Shown here one piece after another: positions 1 to 64,000 of a stretch of 64,000 bases of DNA. Location: assembly GCA_965218425.1 (NCBI GenBank), contig OZ244621.1, positions 4,288,001 through 4,352,000 of the forward strand, written 5' to 3'. The position numbers are program-made. The stretch comes from an uncultured Candidatus Binatia bacterium (lineage in GTDB: Bacteria; Desulfobacterota; Binatia; UBA9968; CAXXLF01). Every line of letters begins with the position of its first letter. The stretch's first letter is position 1.

Positions 1-3000
1 TATTCTCCATCAACGATCGGCCTCCTGTGGAGGCAATCGGCCTCTATCGTGAGGAGAGTGGGTAGGTTGCCGCAAAAGCCAAACTTCAGATAAGAAAACT
101 TAGCGGACGACTCTGTTACGCAGTTATCCGCGTCTCATGTTTCGGACGATACTTCTCGCACAGATCCTTCCAGTAGGCGGCTTTCTTTTGCGAGTTTTCA
201 ATGACCGCTTGAGGAATAACGGTGAATGGCGGCCGGAGTGGTCCCGGTTTGCAATATCCCGCGAAATTCATGGTAAGTTTGCTTCCGGGTTCGCGCCAGC
301 TTTCACTGACTGGACCACCTCCACCACCCCTTAGCTCTCTGATTATTTGACTCGCTTTTTCATAATCGCCTGCTCCGACGGCGTCGCGCAGGGCAAGCAC
401 CGGCCAAGGGCCTAACCATGAGTCAATGGACCAGCAACCTGAAGCTCCCAGGAGCGCGTAGGGGTAATACTGCCATTGGCTACAAAAAATCGCTATTTTA
501 CCTTTCACTGTTGAGACGAATTCAATGAATGCAGGTGTGGGCCGGTGACTGTCCTTAATGCCAACAATGTTAGACTTCTCTGTGATTTTTTTGAAGGCTG
601 GTACGGGAAGACTTACCCGATGGAGCGGAGGATTATGATAGATCATGATCCCTAGCTTTGGGAAAAGATCCGCAATATCGTGGTAGAATCGAATAGCGTT
701 GTCTACGGTGGACGGAATGTAATAGGGCACCCCTGCGAGGACCCCGTCCGCACCGGCTTCTTCAACCACCTTCATTTTGTTCACCACCTCGCGGGTGTGA
801 GGGCTGGTTACGCCGATGAACACTGGAACCCGTTTTTTAGCCGCCTCAGTAGTCGCTCGGGTCAGAGTCACAAATTCATTCCAGAGAAGATTGTAGCATT
901 CTCCGAAGCTGCCGGTGGTCGCAATCACATCGATTCCATCGTTGATAATCCGGTCGACAGCGTCTTGGAGATGATTTACATCAACGGTTTCTGTGGCCTG
1001 TACTGAGCCCCCATTTTCAGTTGTAAATGAGGGCATCATCGCACAAACGCCTTTAAGGTCTTGAGATCGTATCATAATAAGTCTCCTTTCATCGCCTACT
1101 TTATTGACCGTAATGATTTTCGACCAAGGTGTTTATAGCGCTCATAACGCCGCCTCTCTTTAGAAGCTTGATCGATAATGGAATCATACGCTGGCAAAAT
1201 TTCTACCCGCAACTCGTAACGTCTTGGCCGTTACCTATGCCTCAGCTACTGAAACTTGGCTGGGACATGCGAAGCGAAAAACTCGTCGATTGTCAGGTGA
1301 CGCTTTGTTAGGCCTTGTGCGTGCGCATCGTCCAGGAACGCGTCGAGCGCTCTCCGGTTAGGCGTGATCCCGTACGGGAGCGGATCCGGCCCAAATAGCC
1401 TTTCCGTCTCCTCTAGACTGAGCCCAACAATCGGTTCCCTTGGGAACTCGGATGATTCCGCTGGTCCCCTCTGGACTTGCTTCCGGCTCAACTCCTTCGC
1501 AGTCTGGAACGAATCGCAGAGGTTTCCGACCAACCAAGGCTCTCGGCGTGCCAGATCCTCCTTGATGGCAACAATATGATGAGCGGGATACACACCTGTG
1601 CGCTTATAGTAATCGACCTGGGCGGCTACCGGATCCGAGAACAGGGCCACACTCCCTTCGGGACCGAGGCCTCCGGGGACCGTAATGGCGTCGACATCGC
1701 CCGCCAGGAAGAGTTCGCGAGGGTTATTGACTCCCCGCGGGGAACGCTTTGCGTTCGGCGGAAGTTCCAGGGTATCAAGTCGCTCCGGCTGACACGTAAT
1801 CCAGTTGATGTCGTGCAGGGAGATTCCGTACTCCTGGCGCATGACCAACCGATTCCAGATTGAGGCCGACATCCAGAACTGGCGCACCCCGACCCGTTTA
1901 CCGCGCAGATCAGAAGGCTGCTTGATACCCGCGGTTGGCGAGACAAACACACCCCGATGAGGGAACATCCGAACGAACAAGATCGGCAACGCTGCCAGCG
2001 GGATCCCTTGATCCCGGGCCTTAGTGAAACTGCCAATTGACATTTCTCCGACGTCGTACTTGAGCGCGAGCATCGCCTCAGTAATGGTATCCGTGTCCTT
2101 CTCTCGCCTCGCGTGGGCGACGGCTCCCGCGATCGGCACTTCACCGCTCAGCAACTCTGGGGTGCCCGGTGAGCTTTGGCGACCCAGTAAAGACATAGTG
2201 AACTCAAAGTCTGCCATGTTCTCTCCCTCCTCCGAACGGTAAGGATTTCTATATTTGCGTTAGTTGTTGATATCGCATTACCCTGGTTCAACCGTTGCGG
2301 ATCAATTATCCCGAAGCGTCCTACCATGTTATCTGTCGGGGCAACGAACGGCGCGATACTTCTCGGAATGACCGAGATCGCACGGTATTTTTAAAAACCC
2401 TTCAGATCTCGCTAAAGTTCCGGTCGGTAAGGTTGCACTGCTACGTTTTGATGAACAGCCGCCTGTCGCGCCCTAATGATCTTAGGCTTACGTAGGCCTC
2501 AACATTGAGCGAGTAAGCCTCCCCGCTTTTACATCGTCACTGAACTTCTGAACAGCCTCAAAAAGCGAAACCGCAACTGGACCGTAGGTGGCCCGTGGGT
2601 GATCCAACTCCCCCAGATTAAATCCGACCGTGTTTGGTGTGACGCCTAAACGACCATCGCCATCTCCCGCACCGGCAACCATCGTCAATACACTGAGCTC
2701 TTGGGCCATCTTTCCAACGGTCTCCGGCGGCACTCGAGTAAGAAGCAACGAGAATGCCCCTGCGGCTATTAGAGCACGCGCATCACGCCATACTTTGTCT
2801 TCCTCAATGTAGGCGTCTTTAGCGTCCGCGGGTCGATCCCTCCTACCGGTTCCTATGGTGGCCTGTGGTGTCAATCCTATATGCCCCATGACTGGGATGC
2901 CCGCTTTAACTATGGCCTCTACCGTAGAAGCGTGATCGGCCCCCACTTCTAACTTCGCAGCCTGAGCTCCACCCTCCTGAATCAATCGAGCGCTGTTGAA

Positions 3001-63000: not shown

Positions 63001-64000
63001 AGGGAACGGCGGCAGCTACAATTGTAGACGGCCACCCCATGGCCAAAAGGGGAGAGGCAGGTAGGGCCCTTGGCGCCGCCCTATTCAGTTCCTTGATTGG
63101 AGCGGTTGTCGGTGCCTTTGTTCTTGCAGCGTCCATTCCCATAGTAACCCCACTAGTGCTTTCCCTGGGTTCGCCTGAATTTTTCATGTTGGCGCTTCTC
63201 GGTATAAGCTTCATTGCCGCCCTAAGCGGTGGTTCGTTAACCCGCGGGCTGATCGCCGGCTGCGCGGGCTTGCTGTTGGCCACCATCGGTCTGGACCCGC
63301 GAACGGGTGCCATGCGGTTCGGCTTCGACATGCCTTACCTGATGAATGGCATCAGCCTGGTTCCCGTAGGTATCGGGTTATTTGCTATTCCCGAGATTAT
63401 CGACCTTGCGGTGCGAGGGACCAGCATCGCCGAGAACAACGTGGGCAAATTGGGTGGAGTATGGGAGGGGGTTAAGGATACCTTCCGGCATTGGGGAGTG
63501 ACCGTTAGAAGCAGCCTCCTTGGCACATTCATCGGTATTATCCCCGGGTTGGGAGGCGGAGTAGCGCAGTGGATCGCCTACGGGCATGCGGTGCAGAGTG
63601 CGGACGACAAGAGTCAGTTCGGCAAAGGCGATGTGCGCGGCGTTCTGGGACCAGGGGCGGCCAATAACTCTAAAGAGGGCGGGAGTCTGATTCCCGCCGT
63701 AGCCTTTGCGGTCCCGGGTAGCTTGAGCATGGCCATCCTCCTCGGTGCATTCTTGATCCTGGGTCTAAATCCCGGTCCGGAAATGCTGACGAAGGATCTG
63801 CACATCACCTTCTCTATGGTTTGGGTGATCGTCATCTCCAACATCATCACGGTTCTCATCAGCCTGGCCTTCCTGAATCAGCTGGCAAAAATCACCACCG
63901 TACGGGGAGCACTGTTAATCCCGTTTCTCCTGATGCTGATTTATCTCGGCGCGTTTGCCACCAACAACCACATCGGCGATATGCTCGTGATGGTTCTGTT

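Follow-up and report, generated by a model that had tools for sequence, protein, structure and literature searches.

Anciently duplicated catabolic families in a Binatia genome: proposed aromatic-carboxylate cassettes and probable dinuclear oxygenases

We propose, with moderate confidence, that this uncultured Binatia bacterium belongs to an order carrying anciently duplicated catabolic families under purifying selection, and that these form two largely separate toolkits, one for aromatic carboxylates and one of proteins resembling amidohydrolase-related dinuclear oxygenases (AROs). Because approximately 96 of 120 PF04909 proteins look like two-metal oxygenases, we regard the organism as a broad oxidizer of aromatic, and possibly of alicyclic, compounds bearing carboxyl groups rather than a decarboxylation specialist. 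The window (the whole 64,000-nucleotide stretch analyzed) appears to be filled by the aromatic toolkit. A preliminary description had called the genome decarboxylase dominated; its observation was partly confirmed and its interpretation partly supported. The bacterium is presumably a soil organism; the isolate codes of its near relatives seem to denote soil, sediment and groundwater sources.

Results

Gene families in the genome

The assembly is a single 4.46-Mb contig (completeness 97%, contamination 1.3%). All-vs-all blastp on an independent call of 3860 ORFs of at least 80 amino acids gave clusters of 120 Amidohydro_2 (PF04909), 102 SBP_bac_1, 80 Rieske, 72 UbiD, 59 plus 24 bicupin, 40 fused permease, 35 TctC, 32 Mo-hydroxylase large-subunit, 23 PhtD-like, 22 LigB and 16 TctA genes. 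Median nearest-paralog identity was 54-64% across clusters (typically ~55%). The 59-member bicupin cluster held two pairs above 90% identity, and the clusters of Amidohydro_2, SBP, Rieske and UbiD held none. These family sizes, the rarity of near-identical pairs and the 23 dihydroxyphthalate-decarboxylase-like genes reproduce the preliminary description, as do the Rieske proteins (92 claimed; 93 PF00355 matches, 86 in frames of 383-508 amino acids). However, its 26 ThDP and 13 class-II-aldolase genes became 16 and 11 in the re-made clusters.

All 72 PF01977 (UbiD) matches exceeded the cut-off and lay in open frames of 460-577 amino acids with 0 stops, while the two PF02441 matches were one UbiX-like protein (234 amino acids) and one CoaBC (411 amino acids), in agreement with the claimed 72 UbiDs and single UbiX-type gene. 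PF04909 gave 125 matches, one with an internal TAG. The genome held no PQQ_2 or RuBisCO_large match, as had been stated; the equally stated absence of AMO is without a positive control, since the same search matched no control genome either. The PF00175 reductase domain was found 0 times in the genome, so phthalate-family oxygenases lack their usual partner here. The catabolic island described earlier (contig 4261826-4377271) was recovered, with 68 of its 95 ORFs in multi-copy catabolic or transport families.

Distribution and selection

The UbiD-rich trait is order-wide within Binatia. All 40 relatives contained 23-69 UbiD candidates per genome, in line with the claim that the trait is common to relatives, compared with 0-8 in the 98 listed out of 100 genomes of another phylum. 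An ARO-like profile (E<=1e-60) found from 5 to at least 78 matches in each of the 24 relatives searched and none in 80 genomes of that other phylum. Of 9 UbiDs tested, 7 were more similar to an orthologue in relatives than to any paralog in their own genome, which together with the ~55% paralog identity upholds the earlier view that the paralogs are old; at 50% identity, the 72 copies formed 41 clusters. In comparison with a same-genus relative, 11 genes had dN/dS of 0.036-0.093 and the regulator had 0.17. The data support a genuine and ancient expansion, maintained by purifying selection and common to relatives, and we judge the paralogous copies to be functional from dN/dS values of 0.04-0.09 and conserved synteny.

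Organization of the window

The first two-thirds of the window, on the minus strand throughout, holds five cassettes and an ABC uptake system. Cassette A (116..5657) comprises, by Pfam, a DHDPS-like aldolase (116-1075), two 4,5-dihydroxyphthalate-decarboxylase-like genes (1246-2217 and 3307-4359), a PanB-like gene (2488-3294; 232 bits, below the NCBIfam cut-off of 272) and a bicupin (4485-5657). The decarboxylase-like product of 3307-4359 matched PDB entry 9jp7, a 4,5-dihydroxyphthalate decarboxylase (E 8e-37). Cassette B (6082..14572, Pfam) contains an SBP (6082-7263), LigB-like genes (7312-8367 and 12230-13177), a PanB-like gene (8523-9311), a MocA-type diol dehydrogenase (9376-10596), a Rieske/LigXa_C oxygenase (10645-11889) and a further MocA-type gene (13361-14572). 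Its MocA gene matched 3moi (E 1.5e-71) and 7wzd, a 4,5-dihydroxyphthalate dehydrogenase (E 9e-65), and its LigB-like gene matched LigB 1b4u at only E 3e-11. The uptake system (14668..20963; Pfam BPD_transp_1, SBP_bac_1) consists of two fused permeases of 580 amino acids (14668-16410 and 17821-19563; BPD_transp_1) and two solute-binding proteins, one with no Pfam match that clusters with the 102-member SBP family (16610-17824) and one assigned to SBP_bac_1 (19854-20963).

Cassette C (21201..27528) includes a bicupin (21201-22280), a LigB-like gene (22431-23390), a small protein to which we assign no function (23542-23994), a PanB-like gene (24031-24813), a Rieske/LigXa_C gene (24856-26079) and the only PF04909 gene of the window (26518-27528). 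At E ~1e-62, the Rieske protein matched 9ina, 7fjl and 7fhr, the last of which is named 'phthalate 4,5-dioxygenase subunit alpha'. The PF04909 product is a homologue of LigY-type C-C hydrolases (LigY 5vn5, E 3e-112; LigJ, 1e-69; decarboxylases, 1e-21 or weaker). Cassette D (27716..34624; Pfam and cluster table) holds a small protein (27716-28138), a RidA-like gene (28206-28961), two Rieske genes (28977-30140 and 31299-32552), two LigB-like genes (30230-31246 and 32584-33537) and an NMT1_3/TAXI-like binding protein (33677-34624). Cassette E (34681..42273, Pfam) has RidA-like genes (34681-35286 and 38086-38814), a UbiD with the canonical N-R-E-E-E pattern (35305-36771), a MocA-type gene (36813-38012), a Rieske gene (38893-40173), a LigB-like gene (40145-41017) and a PanB-like gene (41482-42273), and is one of the four complete Rieske+MocA+UbiD triads of the genome.

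Beyond these cassettes, a locus on mixed strands (44129..48936, Pfam), with orthologues in relatives L041 and L059, carries an NMT1_3 binding protein (44129-45106, plus), a ThDP enzyme (45191-46867, plus; NF004807, 731 bits, over the cut-off of 607), a luciferase-like monooxygenase (47077-48207, minus) and a TetR/CecR regulator (48268-48936, minus). The operon at 49134..52859 (minus) consists of a bicupin (49134-50324), the split beta (50284-50868) and alpha (50865-51380) parts of a ThDP decarboxylase and a UbiD (51450-52859) that matches PtHmfF (6h6v, E 5e-73); its gene order is kept in L041, L059, L044, L045 and L062 (identity 96%, 86% and ~70%), with dN/dS of 0.036-0.093. An adjoining SBP gene (52898..54025, minus) is interrupted by TAG at 53597-53599, where tblastn and the sequence give Trp in the 96% relative L041. 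The next gene encodes a non-canonical UbiD of 548 amino acids (54089..55735, minus; pattern NNELE), with Asn for the network Arg and Leu for the first network Glu. Its conservation is 95%, 87% and 70% in identity, and its dN/dS values are 0.052 and 0.030. Cassette H (56013..64000, plus; Pfam and cluster table) contains Rieske (56013-57314), MocA-type (57358-58584), two UbiD (58475-60073 and 60085-61539) and TctC-like (61920-62711) genes, followed by TctA from 62742 past the window end. L041 keeps the MocA, both UbiD and the TctC-like genes, and L059 the Rieske, MocA and one UbiD gene.

Aromatic-carboxylate enzymes and their neighbors

The cluster Cys/His ligands and the His-His-Asp iron site were kept in 78-80 of the 80 clustered Rieske paralogs, and Pfam found LigXa_C in all six Rieske proteins of the window. 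A Rieske gene lay within two genes of 10 of the 22 LigB-like genes (1.8 expected) and within three genes of 10 of the 16 MocA genes, four of these 10 also having a UbiD. Within two genes of UbiDs, we observed 21 SBP (7.3 expected), 18 Rieske (5.8), 13 Mo-hydroxylase (2.4) and 7 MocA (1.2) genes. Widening to three genes, 40 of 72 UbiDs had a transporter component, in some cases TctC or TctA, and 52 had a Rieske, ring-cleavage-family or Mo-hydroxylase gene.

The (E/D)-R-E network of UbiD enzymes (described in the part of PMC8988006 drawn on here) was kept in 62 of 72 copies and all five checked sites in 47, with 25 deviating at one or more. The copies resemble the prFMN system of HmfF, AroY, VdcCD, Fdc1 and UbiD in this network, in their three-domain architecture and in the presence of one UbiX-type flavin prenyltransferase, and PtHmfF, the closest structural match of one copy in the window, acts on furan dicarboxylic acid. 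They differ in number, with 72 copies alongside one UbiX, and in a conserved subgroup without the network Arg and first Glu. Most window enzymes fall far below NCBIfam equivalog cut-offs, and none of the five UbiDs reaches one. The phenylphosphate carboxylase beta model (cut-off 469) scored 210-262 bits with the UbiDs at 35305-36771, 58475-60073 and 60085-61539; it ranked first for two of these, and for the third only the general UbiD model ranked above it.

Every close characterized homologue that we found for the aromatic toolkit acts on a dicarboxylated aromatic compound: LigY, HmfF, the alpha subunit of phthalate 4,5-dioxygenase, and the dehydrogenase and decarboxylase of 4,5-dihydroxyphthalate. 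These nearest solved homologues favor the dicarboxylated-aromatic part of the earlier poly-carboxylated-substrate idea; its carboxyl-stripping specialist we consider unlikely. The bicupins had been called gentisate-dioxygenase-like, a likeness that proved remote for the 59-member family (E 6e-7 over one cupin), for which we found no informative homologue.

Four enzyme classes of the pht/oph pathway, which leads from 4,5-dihydroxyphthalate into protocatechuate and then 4,5-cleavage, are found here in neighboring genes: homologues of the Rieske alpha subunit, of the MocA-type 4,5-dihydroxyphthalate dehydrogenase and of 4,5-dihydroxyphthalate decarboxylase, and a LigB-type extradiol dioxygenase. 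Unlike that single operon, the Binatia genome has dozens of divergent paralogous cassettes, UbiD often takes the place of the PhtD-type decarboxylase (as in the triads), PF00175 is lacking, and the LigB-like proteins bear only a very distant likeness to LigB. In Sphingobium sp. SYK-6, the lig pathway for dehydrodivanillate proceeds through LigXa, LigZ, LigY and LigW. The window shares with it the LigXa_C-bearing Rieske proteins, the adjoining LigB-type genes and a full-length LigY homologue. However, no LigW-type decarboxylase lies beside the LigY-like gene, our searches of the genome identified no LigXc/LigXd-type electron-transfer pair, and the window Rieske proteins resemble structures of phthalate dioxygenase more than any named demethylase.

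The PF04909 family

In an alignment of the 120 clustered PF04909 paralogs, the six metal-ligand columns read D,H,H,E,D,H in 96, an N-terminal D-x-H was present in 99, and the strict D-x-P-H-x-[D/E] motif in 43, all of which also had the D-x-H. C-terminal variants among the ARO-like proteins had Gly for Pro (~21), the acid shifted by one residue (16) or no acid (13). Eight paralogs resembled hydrolases or hydratases of the LigY/LigJ kind, and the ACMSD-like HxH..H..H..D pattern survived in only ~8. Searched against the PDB, the family profile matched PtmU3 best and over its full length (E 1.7e-60), then 8sm9, 8sm7, DitZ and 8sm8, and the best decarboxylase, gamma-resorcylate decarboxylase (E 3e-37), was ~23 orders of magnitude weaker. 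The Gly-for-Pro variant L124 had three AROs as its top matches (4dzi, PtmU3 and SfbO; E ~1e-9). Foldseek with a predicted model (pLDDT 70) placed ACMSD and IDCase above AROs by E-value and gave its highest TM-score, 0.75, to PtmU3. The neighbors of ARO-like genes are transporters, SDR and Zn-dependent dehydrogenases and mu-crystallin-type enzymes, with no enrichment beside Rieske-family genes taken as a whole (7 observed, 7.7 expected).

We read ~96 of the PF04909 proteins as probable amidohydrolase-related dinuclear oxygenases (Fe/Fe or Mn/Fe) and not as decarboxylases. With the eight LigY/LigJ-like proteins also set aside, at most ~16 decarboxylase candidates are left. Therefore, the earlier total of ~270 (de)carboxylases fails, because it needs every PF04909 gene to be a decarboxylase; the count of 124 "ACMSD/LigW-type" proteins stands, but their identity as decarboxylases and the decarboxylase-dominated headline do not. 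The motif definition comes from PMC13154177, the consulted parts of which state that the motif is absent from every characterized PF04909 hydrolase and decarboxylase, put AROs at ~17,000 in all UniProt, and mention neither Binatia nor per-genome copy numbers. The Binatia paralogs share fold, ligands, motif and best PDB matches with the handful of characterized AROs (such as PtmU3, AibH2, SfbO and DitZ, in the parts of PMC13154177 and PMC10811679 drawn on here). They are set apart by ~96 copies in one genome, roughly half with a variant C-terminal motif, and by the lack of enrichment beside Rieske-family genes.

Discussion

We suggest a putative scheme for the aromatic toolkit. Substrate would enter by binding-protein-dependent or TctABC uptake, and a phthalate-family Rieske dioxygenase followed by a MocA-type cis-diol dehydrogenase would yield a dihydroxy aromatic acid. 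Its carboxyl group could be removed by a prFMN-dependent UbiD, with the single UbiX as supplier, or by a 4,5-dihydroxyphthalate-decarboxylase-like enzyme, and the ring opened by a LigB-type dioxygenase or perhaps a bicupin, with LigY-like, PanB-like, DHDPS-like, RidA-like and ThDP enzymes processing the product. Each paralogous cassette may serve its own substituted aromatic or heteroaromatic acid, and the ARO-like toolkit may introduce hydroxyl groups at C-H bonds of acids that are aliphatic, alicyclic or similar to amino acids. We infer the reaction order, the substrates and the direction of the UbiD reactions; with only four triads, the proposed order would hold for a minority of UbiDs. Further points that count against the proposal are the missing PF00175 domain, the low equivalog scores of most window enzymes, the remote LigB and bicupin likenesses and the 25 deviating UbiDs, and, for the ARO-like proteins, the strict motif in only 43 of 96, the Foldseek E-values and the lack of enrichment beside Rieske-family genes.

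A specialist with ~270 decarboxylases, stripping carboxyls from polycarboxylated aromatics or alicyclics (benzene-polycarboxylic acids, carboxyl-rich refractory matter or host phenolics), would fit the 72 UbiD and 23 PhtD-like genes, the dicarboxylated substrates of the nearest homologues, the TctC and TctA genes, and cassette H, which joins Rieske, MocA and two UbiDs to TctC and TctA. We nevertheless consider it unlikely, given the few PF04909 decarboxylase candidates and the greater number of O2-activating families (~86 Rieske, 96 ARO-like, 22 LigB, 26 luciferase-like and possibly 83 bicupins); a marine or host-derived source of substrates finds no pointer among listed near relatives. It is similarly doubtful that the D-x-H proteins are redox-inert metal hydrolases, hydratases, lactonases or decarboxylases, and that motif transfer over-reaches, especially for the 53 without the strict motif. 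The motif's presence in only 43 of 120, the Foldseek E-values, the modest L124 score, the Rieske neighborhood and the few characterized AROs speak for that view, but the six ligands in 96 of 120, the PtmU3 profile match, the reported absence of the motif from hydrolases and decarboxylases, and the AROs heading the L124 matches weigh against it.

Improbable, too, is a mainly carboxylating or anaerobic activating role for the UbiDs, in the style of phenylphosphate or benzene carboxylase. UbiD reactions are reversible (PMC8988006, in the part drawn on here), three window copies match the phenylphosphate carboxylase model, and other same-phylum genomes with 53-59 UbiD candidates have only 10 PF04909 candidates. 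However, the model scores are far under the cut-off, and 52 of 72 UbiDs lie near oxidative or ring-cleavage-family genes, of which the Rieske and LigB classes need O2. We give almost no credence to an artefact (a chimeric bin, assembly duplication or decaying pseudogene families). In its favor, the sequence was assembled from a metagenome and holds a few fragments, namely the interrupted SBP gene and the PF04909 match with an internal TAG. Nonetheless, this reading is refuted by the intact UbiD frames, the ~55% paralog identity, far from near-identical, the gene order conserved in independent relatives and the low dN/dS (~0.05), and against it also stand the single, nearly complete contig and near-identical DNA in runs from at least three studies.

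The ancient Binatia expansion has a counterpart in SAR202, where the expanded families are flavin monooxygenases and enolase-type enzymes, whereas here they are UbiD, phthalate-type Rieske and ARO-like proteins; the phylum differs, and probably the habitat too. For SAR202 (Chloroflexota), paralog expansions have been proposed to oxidize recalcitrant organic matter (PMC5395668 and PMC6946804, in the parts drawn on here). Binatota, the same candidate phylum by close relatives' titles and NCBI taxonomy, have been described in terms of methylotrophy, alkane degradation and pigments (Murphy et al. 2021, PMC8262859), in a main text that never uses the words UbiD, decarboxylase, aromatic, Rieske, amidohydrolase or dioxygenase. 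The present genome departs from that picture in its unmatched PQQ_2, RuBisCO_large and, with the control caveat above, AMO. Apart from two with other labels, the listed near relatives bear titles of Candidatus Binatia, Deltaproteobacteria or delta proteobacterium MAGs.

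Gene families and paralog age

The genome is a single contig of 4,459,497 bp (97% complete, 1.3% contaminated), and family counts were taken from six-frame Pfam searches over its whole length. PF01977 (UbiD) gave 72 matches, all 72 above the cut-off and in open frames of 460-577 aa without stops, PF04909 (Amidohydro_2) gave 125, and PF00355 (Rieske) gave 93, 86 of them in frames of 383-508 aa. The two matches to PF02441 comprised one gene of UbiX size (234 aa) and one of CoaBC size (411 aa). The numbers of UbiD, Amidohydro_2, UbiX-like and Rieske genes in the preliminary description were thereby reproduced. 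PQQ_2 and RuBisCO_large had no match genome-wide; neither had AMO, for which the same search gave no match in any control genome either.

An independent, crude gene call yielded 3860 ORFs of at least 80 aa, which were compared by all-against-all blastp, grouped by single linkage and labeled from Pfam scans of representatives. The large clusters hold 120 Amidohydro_2, 102 SBP_bac_1, 80 Rieske/LigXa_C and 72 UbiD proteins, together with bicupins in two clusters of 59 and 24. They are followed by 47 ABC ATPases, 42 SDR proteins, 40 fused permeases, 35 TctC proteins and 32 Mo-hydroxylase large subunits, then by 27 ornithine-cyclodeaminase/mu-crystallin, 26 luciferase-like, 23 PhtD-like and 22 LigB proteins, and by MocA, ThDP and TctA clusters of 16 each. 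Altogether, 1110 of the 3860 ORFs fall in clusters of at least ten. Median identities to the nearest paralog are 54-64%, and pairs above 90% identity are absent from the Amidohydro_2, SBP, Rieske and UbiD clusters, and two occur among the 59 clustered bicupins. Clustering at 50% identity splits the UbiD paralogs into 41 groups. Identity of about 100% across a whole family is seen for the IS families alone. Several of these (rve, HTH_Tnp_1, and DDE_3 with HTH_33) are present in 14-27 copies, for example at contig 3860906-3861945 and 4279452-4280497, a recent proliferation that stands in contrast to the old age of the enzyme paralogs.

A catabolic island had been proposed at contig 4261826-4377271, and our gene call agrees: 68 of its 95 ORFs belong to multi-copy catabolic or transport families, among them 12 Rieske, 9 UbiD, 9 SBP, 6 LigB, 4 MocA and 7 bicupin genes.

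The Amidohydro_2 paralogs

Enzymes of the ACMSD/LigW type carry H-x-H or E-x-H on strand 1, His on strands 5 and 6, and Asp on strand 8. The preliminary description had placed all 124 Amidohydro_2 proteins of its count in this type. When the 120 clustered paralogs were aligned with MAFFT, the strand 1 columns held Asp in 99 and His in 117 (D-x-H in 99, H-x-H in 18), and strand 8 held Asp in 109 and Glu in 9, followed by [YF]-[PG]-H. The six ligand positions read D, H, H, E, D, H in 96 of the 120. Four histidines at the first four columns were found in 16 proteins, 8 of which have Glu on strand 8 and are LigY/LigJ-like, the single window gene included, and about 8 of which have Asp. The ACMSD/LigW ligand pattern is thus confined to about 8 of 120, and the assignment of the whole family to it does not stand.

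The pattern of the majority resembles that of the amidohydrolase-related dinuclear oxygenases (AROs). According to the available text of PMC13154177 (Liu, Nguyen, Britt and Rittle, JACS 2026), AROs are defined by the fold of PF04909 together with an N-terminal D-x-H in beta strand 1 and a C-terminal D-x-P-H-x-[D/E] that follows about 200 residues; the same text reports the motif in no characterized PF04909 hydrolase or decarboxylase and in about 17,000 UniProt sequences. The available portion of PMC10811679 describes 8sm7-9 as Fe2-metalated ARO proteins and 8sm6 as SfbO. The strict C-terminal motif is present in 43 of our 120 proteins, all 43 with the N-terminal D-x-H. Among the 96 six-ligand proteins, an acidic residue is found at H+2 in 67 (with Pro or Gly as the third residue), at H+1 in 16 and at neither in 13.

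Similarity searches were consistent with an ARO-like majority. One PF04909 representative (L124) had 4dzi, PtmU3 and SfbO as its best three PDB matches (E 2e-9 to 2e-6), with ACMSD behind. A profile of five diverse representatives matched PtmU3 over its full length at 1.7e-60, followed by 8sm9 (5.5e-42), 8sm7 (2.3e-41), DitZ (5.4e-39) and 8sm8 (8.9e-39); the decarboxylases gave 3.1e-37 (gamma-resorcylate decarboxylase), 4e-36 (ACMSD) and 3e-34 (LigW). The AF2 model of L124 (pLDDT 70.3) is a TIM barrel with its top TM-scores to PtmU3 (0.75) and DitZ (0.74), and the Foldseek E-values on this model do not separate AROs from decarboxylases. NCBIfam gave no match for seven PF04909 representatives. 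Judged by ligand residues and homology, most of the 120 paralogs are ARO-like rather than of the ACMSD/LigW type, and oxygenase activity is predicted for them.

This reassignment changes the metabolic balance. The roughly 270 (de)carboxylases counted earlier shrink to a family-level tally of about 160-170, because the 96 ARO-like and 8 LigY/LigJ-like proteins have to be subtracted. The predicted O2-activating enzymes comprise about 86 Rieske, 96 ARO-like, 22 LigB and 26 luciferase-like proteins, plus 83 bicupins if these are dioxygenases, and would outnumber the decarboxylases. PtmU3 and DitZ act on diterpenoid acids. The earlier suggestion of alicyclic substrates accordingly gains indirect support, from the oxygenases and not from the decarboxylases on which it had been based.

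No excess of ARO-like genes was seen around UbiD or Rieske genes; their neighbors are, more often than expected, other ARO-like genes, permeases, SDR and Zn-dependent dehydrogenases, bicupins of the 24-member family and mu-crystallin-type genes. The 27 ornithine-cyclodeaminase/mu-crystallin paralogs repeatedly adjoin ARO-like genes, as in the pairs at contig 4116173/4117649, 4170253/4171428, 4208109/4209314 and 4222267/4223444, a pairing that hints at cyclic imino-acid or N-heterocycle substrates.

Bicupins

The 85 bicupins had been called gentisate-dioxygenase-like. The 24-member family gives two strong Cupin_2 matches, and the 59-member family is linked to the dioxygenase label solely by a profile match to 3bu7 at E 6e-7 over one cupin. 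The larger family had no phmmer match in the PDB, and its AF2 model (pLDDT 78.6) retrieved generic bicupins in Foldseek at TM of about 0.45. Four histidines are kept in 56-59 of its 59 members, three of them in all 59. As to function, phmmer, profile search, AF2 model, Foldseek and the protein atlas yielded nothing beyond "bicupin".

Cassettes of the window

The window covers contig positions 4288001-4352000, and its genes are arranged in cassettes that recur along it. Pfam scans of 52 window ORFs identified 6 Rieske/LigXa_C, 6 LigB-like, 5 UbiD, 4 MocA-type, 4 PanB-like and 3 RidA-like genes, 3 bicupins, 2 PhtD-like genes, 1 PF04909 gene, and one whole and one split ThDP enzyme, as well as transport genes for binding proteins, permeases, TctC and TctA. 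The solved structures nearest to the Rieske protein at 24856-26079 are 9ina, 7fhr ("phthalate 4,5-dioxygenase subunit alpha") and 7fjl, at E of about 1e-62. The MocA-type protein at 9376-10596 is closest to 3moi (E 1.5e-71) and also matches 7wzd, "4,5-dihydroxyphthalate dehydrogenase" (E 9e-65), and the product of the gene at 3307-4359 matches 9jp7, "4,5-dihydroxyphthalate decarboxylase" (E 8e-37). The PF04909 protein at 26518-27528 matches LigY, the meta-cleavage-product hydrolase of the dicarboxybiphenyl pathway, at E 3e-112, then the LigJ hydratase at 1e-69, with decarboxylases at 1e-21 or weaker. The UbiD at 51450-52859 is related to PtHmfF (6h6v, E 5e-73), which acts on furan dicarboxylic acid according to the available text of PMC8988006. 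With the exception of the LigB-like protein at 12230-13177, whose match to LigB is remote (E 3e-11), the nearest solved homologues are all enzymes whose substrates are dicarboxylated aromatics.

The genomic neighborhoods fit these homologies. Within two genes of a UbiD, genome-wide, SBP genes occur 21 times (7.3 expected), Rieske 18 times (5.8), Mo-hydroxylase 13 times (2.4) and MocA 7 times (1.2). A Rieske gene lies no more than two genes from 10 of the 22 LigB-like genes (1.8 expected) and no more than three genes from 10 of the 16 MocA genes; 4 of these 10 are also accompanied by a decarboxylase-family gene, which is a UbiD each time. For 52 of the 72 UbiDs, a Rieske, ring-cleavage-family or Mo-hydroxylase gene is no more than three genes away, and 40 of the 72 have a transporter component close by. 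Of the 80 clustered Rieske proteins, 78-80 retain each of the [2Fe-2S] ligands and the residues of the His-His-Asp iron site.

Since homologies and context agree, we read the window as variations on a phthalate-type sequence, in which dioxygenation would be followed by dehydrogenation, decarboxylation and extradiol cleavage; both the order and the substrates are putative. The decarboxylase position would often be taken by a UbiD. As in the pht/oph phthalate module, homologues of the oxygenase, the MocA-type diol dehydrogenase and the decarboxylase share one neighborhood here. Carboxylated, perhaps poly-carboxylated, aromatic compounds, the targets favored in the preliminary description, are candidate substrates of this toolkit, supported by homology and by the TctABC linkage. 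Among the window enzymes, one ThDP enzyme alone gave an equivalog-level NCBIfam match and one UbiD matched the general UbiD subfamily model; nearly all toolkit proteins score far under the equivalog cut-offs.

Two further features were observed. Four of the genome's seven PanB-like genes (ketopantoate hydroxymethyltransferase family) lie inside ring-cleavage cassettes, at 2488-3294, 8523-9311, 24031-24813 and 41482-42273, all on the minus strand and all under the NCBIfam PanB cut-offs. Their products probably perform aldol-type chemistry on 2-oxo acids, not pantothenate synthesis. Moreover, the adjacency of UbiD and Mo-hydroxylase genes involves the large subunit, within two genes of 13 of the 72 UbiDs; at one of these 13 sites (contig 4358062-4363431), a UbiD and the Mo-hydroxylase FAD, large and small subunits form an operon. 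This adjacency suggests a substrate range that includes N- or O-heteroaromatic carboxylates.

Integrity of the UbiD genes

Four of the five window UbiDs match UbiD_N, UbiD and UbiD_C, and the fifth, at 54089-55735, matches UbiD and UbiD_C only. An (E/D)-R-E ionic network beside prFMN is described as conserved in the UbiD family in the available text of PMC8988006. In our alignment of all 72 proteins, the Arg is present in 64, the first Glu in 61 (with Asp in a further 3) and the second Glu in 69. The network is complete in 62 and fails in 10. For the metal-binding Asn and Glu we used the columns that we take to be equivalent, and 47 of the 72 proteins are canonical at each of the five sites checked.

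The order of the operon comprising a UbiD, a split ThDP decarboxylase and a bicupin is kept in five loci of relatives, at 96%, 86% and about 70% identity; one locus at about 88% identity corresponds to the nearest paralog of the query instead. Nine UbiDs have a match in the relatives' loci, and for 7 of them the copy found there is more similar than any paralog in the genome, the exception being one tandem UbiD pair at 80% identity. Compared with a same-genus relative (dS 0.38-1.24), dN/dS ranges from 0.036 to 0.093 across eleven genes and reaches 0.17 in the regulator. Open frames, conserved residues, synteny and dN/dS all indicate that the UbiD copies are functional and old. The reading of the expansion as an artefact or as pseudogenes was rejected given the stop-free frames of all 72, the diverged paralogs, the conserved gene order in relatives and the low dN/dS.

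Distribution among other genomes

Forty relatives within the order, from 3 families and 11 genera, have 23-69 UbiD candidates each. A wider sample comprised 150 further genomes, taken evenly across the GTDB phylum; 126 of them are listed, and 24 lacked a strong match. More than 30 candidates were found in four of the 126 (G060, 59; G066, 53; G076, 60; G164, 32) and at most 7 in the remainder, with 0-4 in the sample's four genomes from other orders of the class. A second sample took 100 genomes evenly from the phylum to which an Alphaproteobacteria MAG belongs; 98 are listed with 0-8 candidates and two had no match. Some other uncultured lineages with these UbiDs are also rich in them, namely a Chloroflexota MAG (45), an Alphaproteobacteria MAG (30) and a Tectomicrobia MAG (19). 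The 72 genes studied here are the top count among about 290 genomes with counts listed, a sample that is not global.

Expansions to 30-60 copies elsewhere occur in G060, G066 and G076, which belong to other classes of the same GTDB phylum, and in G191 and G192. PF04909 candidates number 71 in G076 and 10 each in G060 and G066. The UbiD expansions of other lineages appear to be independent or transferred, with different partner families. ARO-like profile matches at E<=1e-60 number from 5 to at least 78 in each of the 24 relatives searched and are absent from all 80 genomes of the other phylum; the ARO-like expansion is order-wide.

Binatia are placed in Candidatus Binatota by NCBI. One window UbiD was used to find the near relatives, most of which carry titles of Candidatus Binatia, Deltaproteobacteria or delta proteobacterium MAGs; two are labeled otherwise. 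Their isolate codes, as we read them, point to soil, sediment and groundwater. No pointer to a host or marine source was found, including among the titles of these near relatives.

Electron supply and implications

About 180 predicted oxygenases (approximately 86 Rieske and 96 ARO-like) would need electrons, yet the usual reductase domain is missing: PF00175 (FNR-type NAD-binding) has no match in this 97%-complete genome, and the same search finds matches in 11 of 14 control genomes. The reductase of phthalate 4,5-dioxygenase is of class IA and combines an FNR-type NAD-binding with a plant-type ferredoxin domain; in this respect the cassettes differ from the pht/oph module, whose reductase has no counterpart here. 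Fer2 matches are mostly open frames of 160-205 aa, which we read as Mo-hydroxylase small subunits. None of the 24 Pyr_redox_2 matches is an obvious ferredoxin reductase of 400-420 aa. The best small Rieske ferredoxin is encoded within the suf operon.

In the literature searched, supplements excluded, we found no link of Binatota with UbiD, and searches for UbiD paralogs or gene copies in MAGs showed nothing relevant among the papers listed. The main text of the key Binatota paper (PMC8262859) mentions none of these families, and the available text of the ARO paper (PMC13154177) mentions neither Binatia nor copy numbers per genome. The accessible part of a 2025 preprint reports only high copy numbers of two named enzymes in soil Binatota, which we read as Mo-hydroxylase-family genes. 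The paralog-expansion hypothesis for SAR202, as outlined in the part of that work available, is similar in concept. The enzyme families described here are known ones; their combination is unreported, extreme and shared across the lineage, and the function label of the largest family is corrected.

Earlier accounts of Binatia, which are widespread and uncultured, treat them chiefly as methylotrophs and alkane users, whereas most of the accessory genome in this order is built to oxidize and decarboxylate organic acids. It is conceivable, and on balance rather doubtful, that the Binatia order holds the densest known complements of UbiD (72, about 16 per Mb, with one UbiX) and of AROs (about 96, against about 17,000 in UniProt), plus about 86 Rieske proteins without the usual reductase, and acts with them as a major sink in soil and groundwater. 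If so, this would be an unrecognized sink for the carboxylated aromatic, heteroaromatic and alicyclic breakdown products (humic, lignin-derived or pyrogenic acids), with about 180 oxygenases served by one shared electron-delivery system. An accessory genome of the kind seen in this order changes expectations of Binatia in soil carbon turnover, and the family content suggests substrates to try in cultivation. The genome also offers a compact library of dozens of diverged, intact and selected UbiDs, enzymes sought for reversible CO2 chemistry, and close to a hundred candidate dinuclear C-H oxygenases, from a superfamily in which only a few proteins have been characterized. Equating Amidohydro_2 with decarboxylase at the family level can mislead genome-scale inference, and the missing reductase poses a concrete, testable question.

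Divergent UbiDs, an interrupted gene and the UbiX locus

A subgroup of five or six UbiD proteins of 540-560 aa lacks the network Arg, which is replaced by Asn, and the first Glu. Its copies include the window gene at 54089-55735 (minus strand) and contig genes near 339726, 2198794, 3775862 and 3961626. Because both residues are gone and the subgroup is nevertheless strongly conserved (dN/dS 0.03-0.05), comparison of the sequences suggests a different role. In all relatives examined, the window copy stands two genes away from a canonical UbiD, and it may be a non-catalytic or differently catalytic partner.

Between two UbiD genes, the solute-binding protein gene at 52898-54025 (minus strand) is interrupted by a TAG stop at 53597-53599, where the locus of a 96% identical relative (L041) encodes Trp; outside the stop, the gene is 92% identical and otherwise unbroken. 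A recent pseudogene would account for this, as would a sequencing error.

The UbiX-like gene (PF02441, 234 aa) lies on the minus strand at positions 4116-4820 of the locus at contig 1266001-1275000. A CTP-dependent riboflavin kinase gene (PF01982) is found directly upstream, an FMN_dh-like gene and two PNPOx-like genes are found downstream, and XdhC, CoxE and AAA (CoxD-like) genes for Mo-hydroxylase maturation lie alongside. This "cofactor" locus may be a shared supply point for the expansions of prFMN and Mo-cofactor enzymes.
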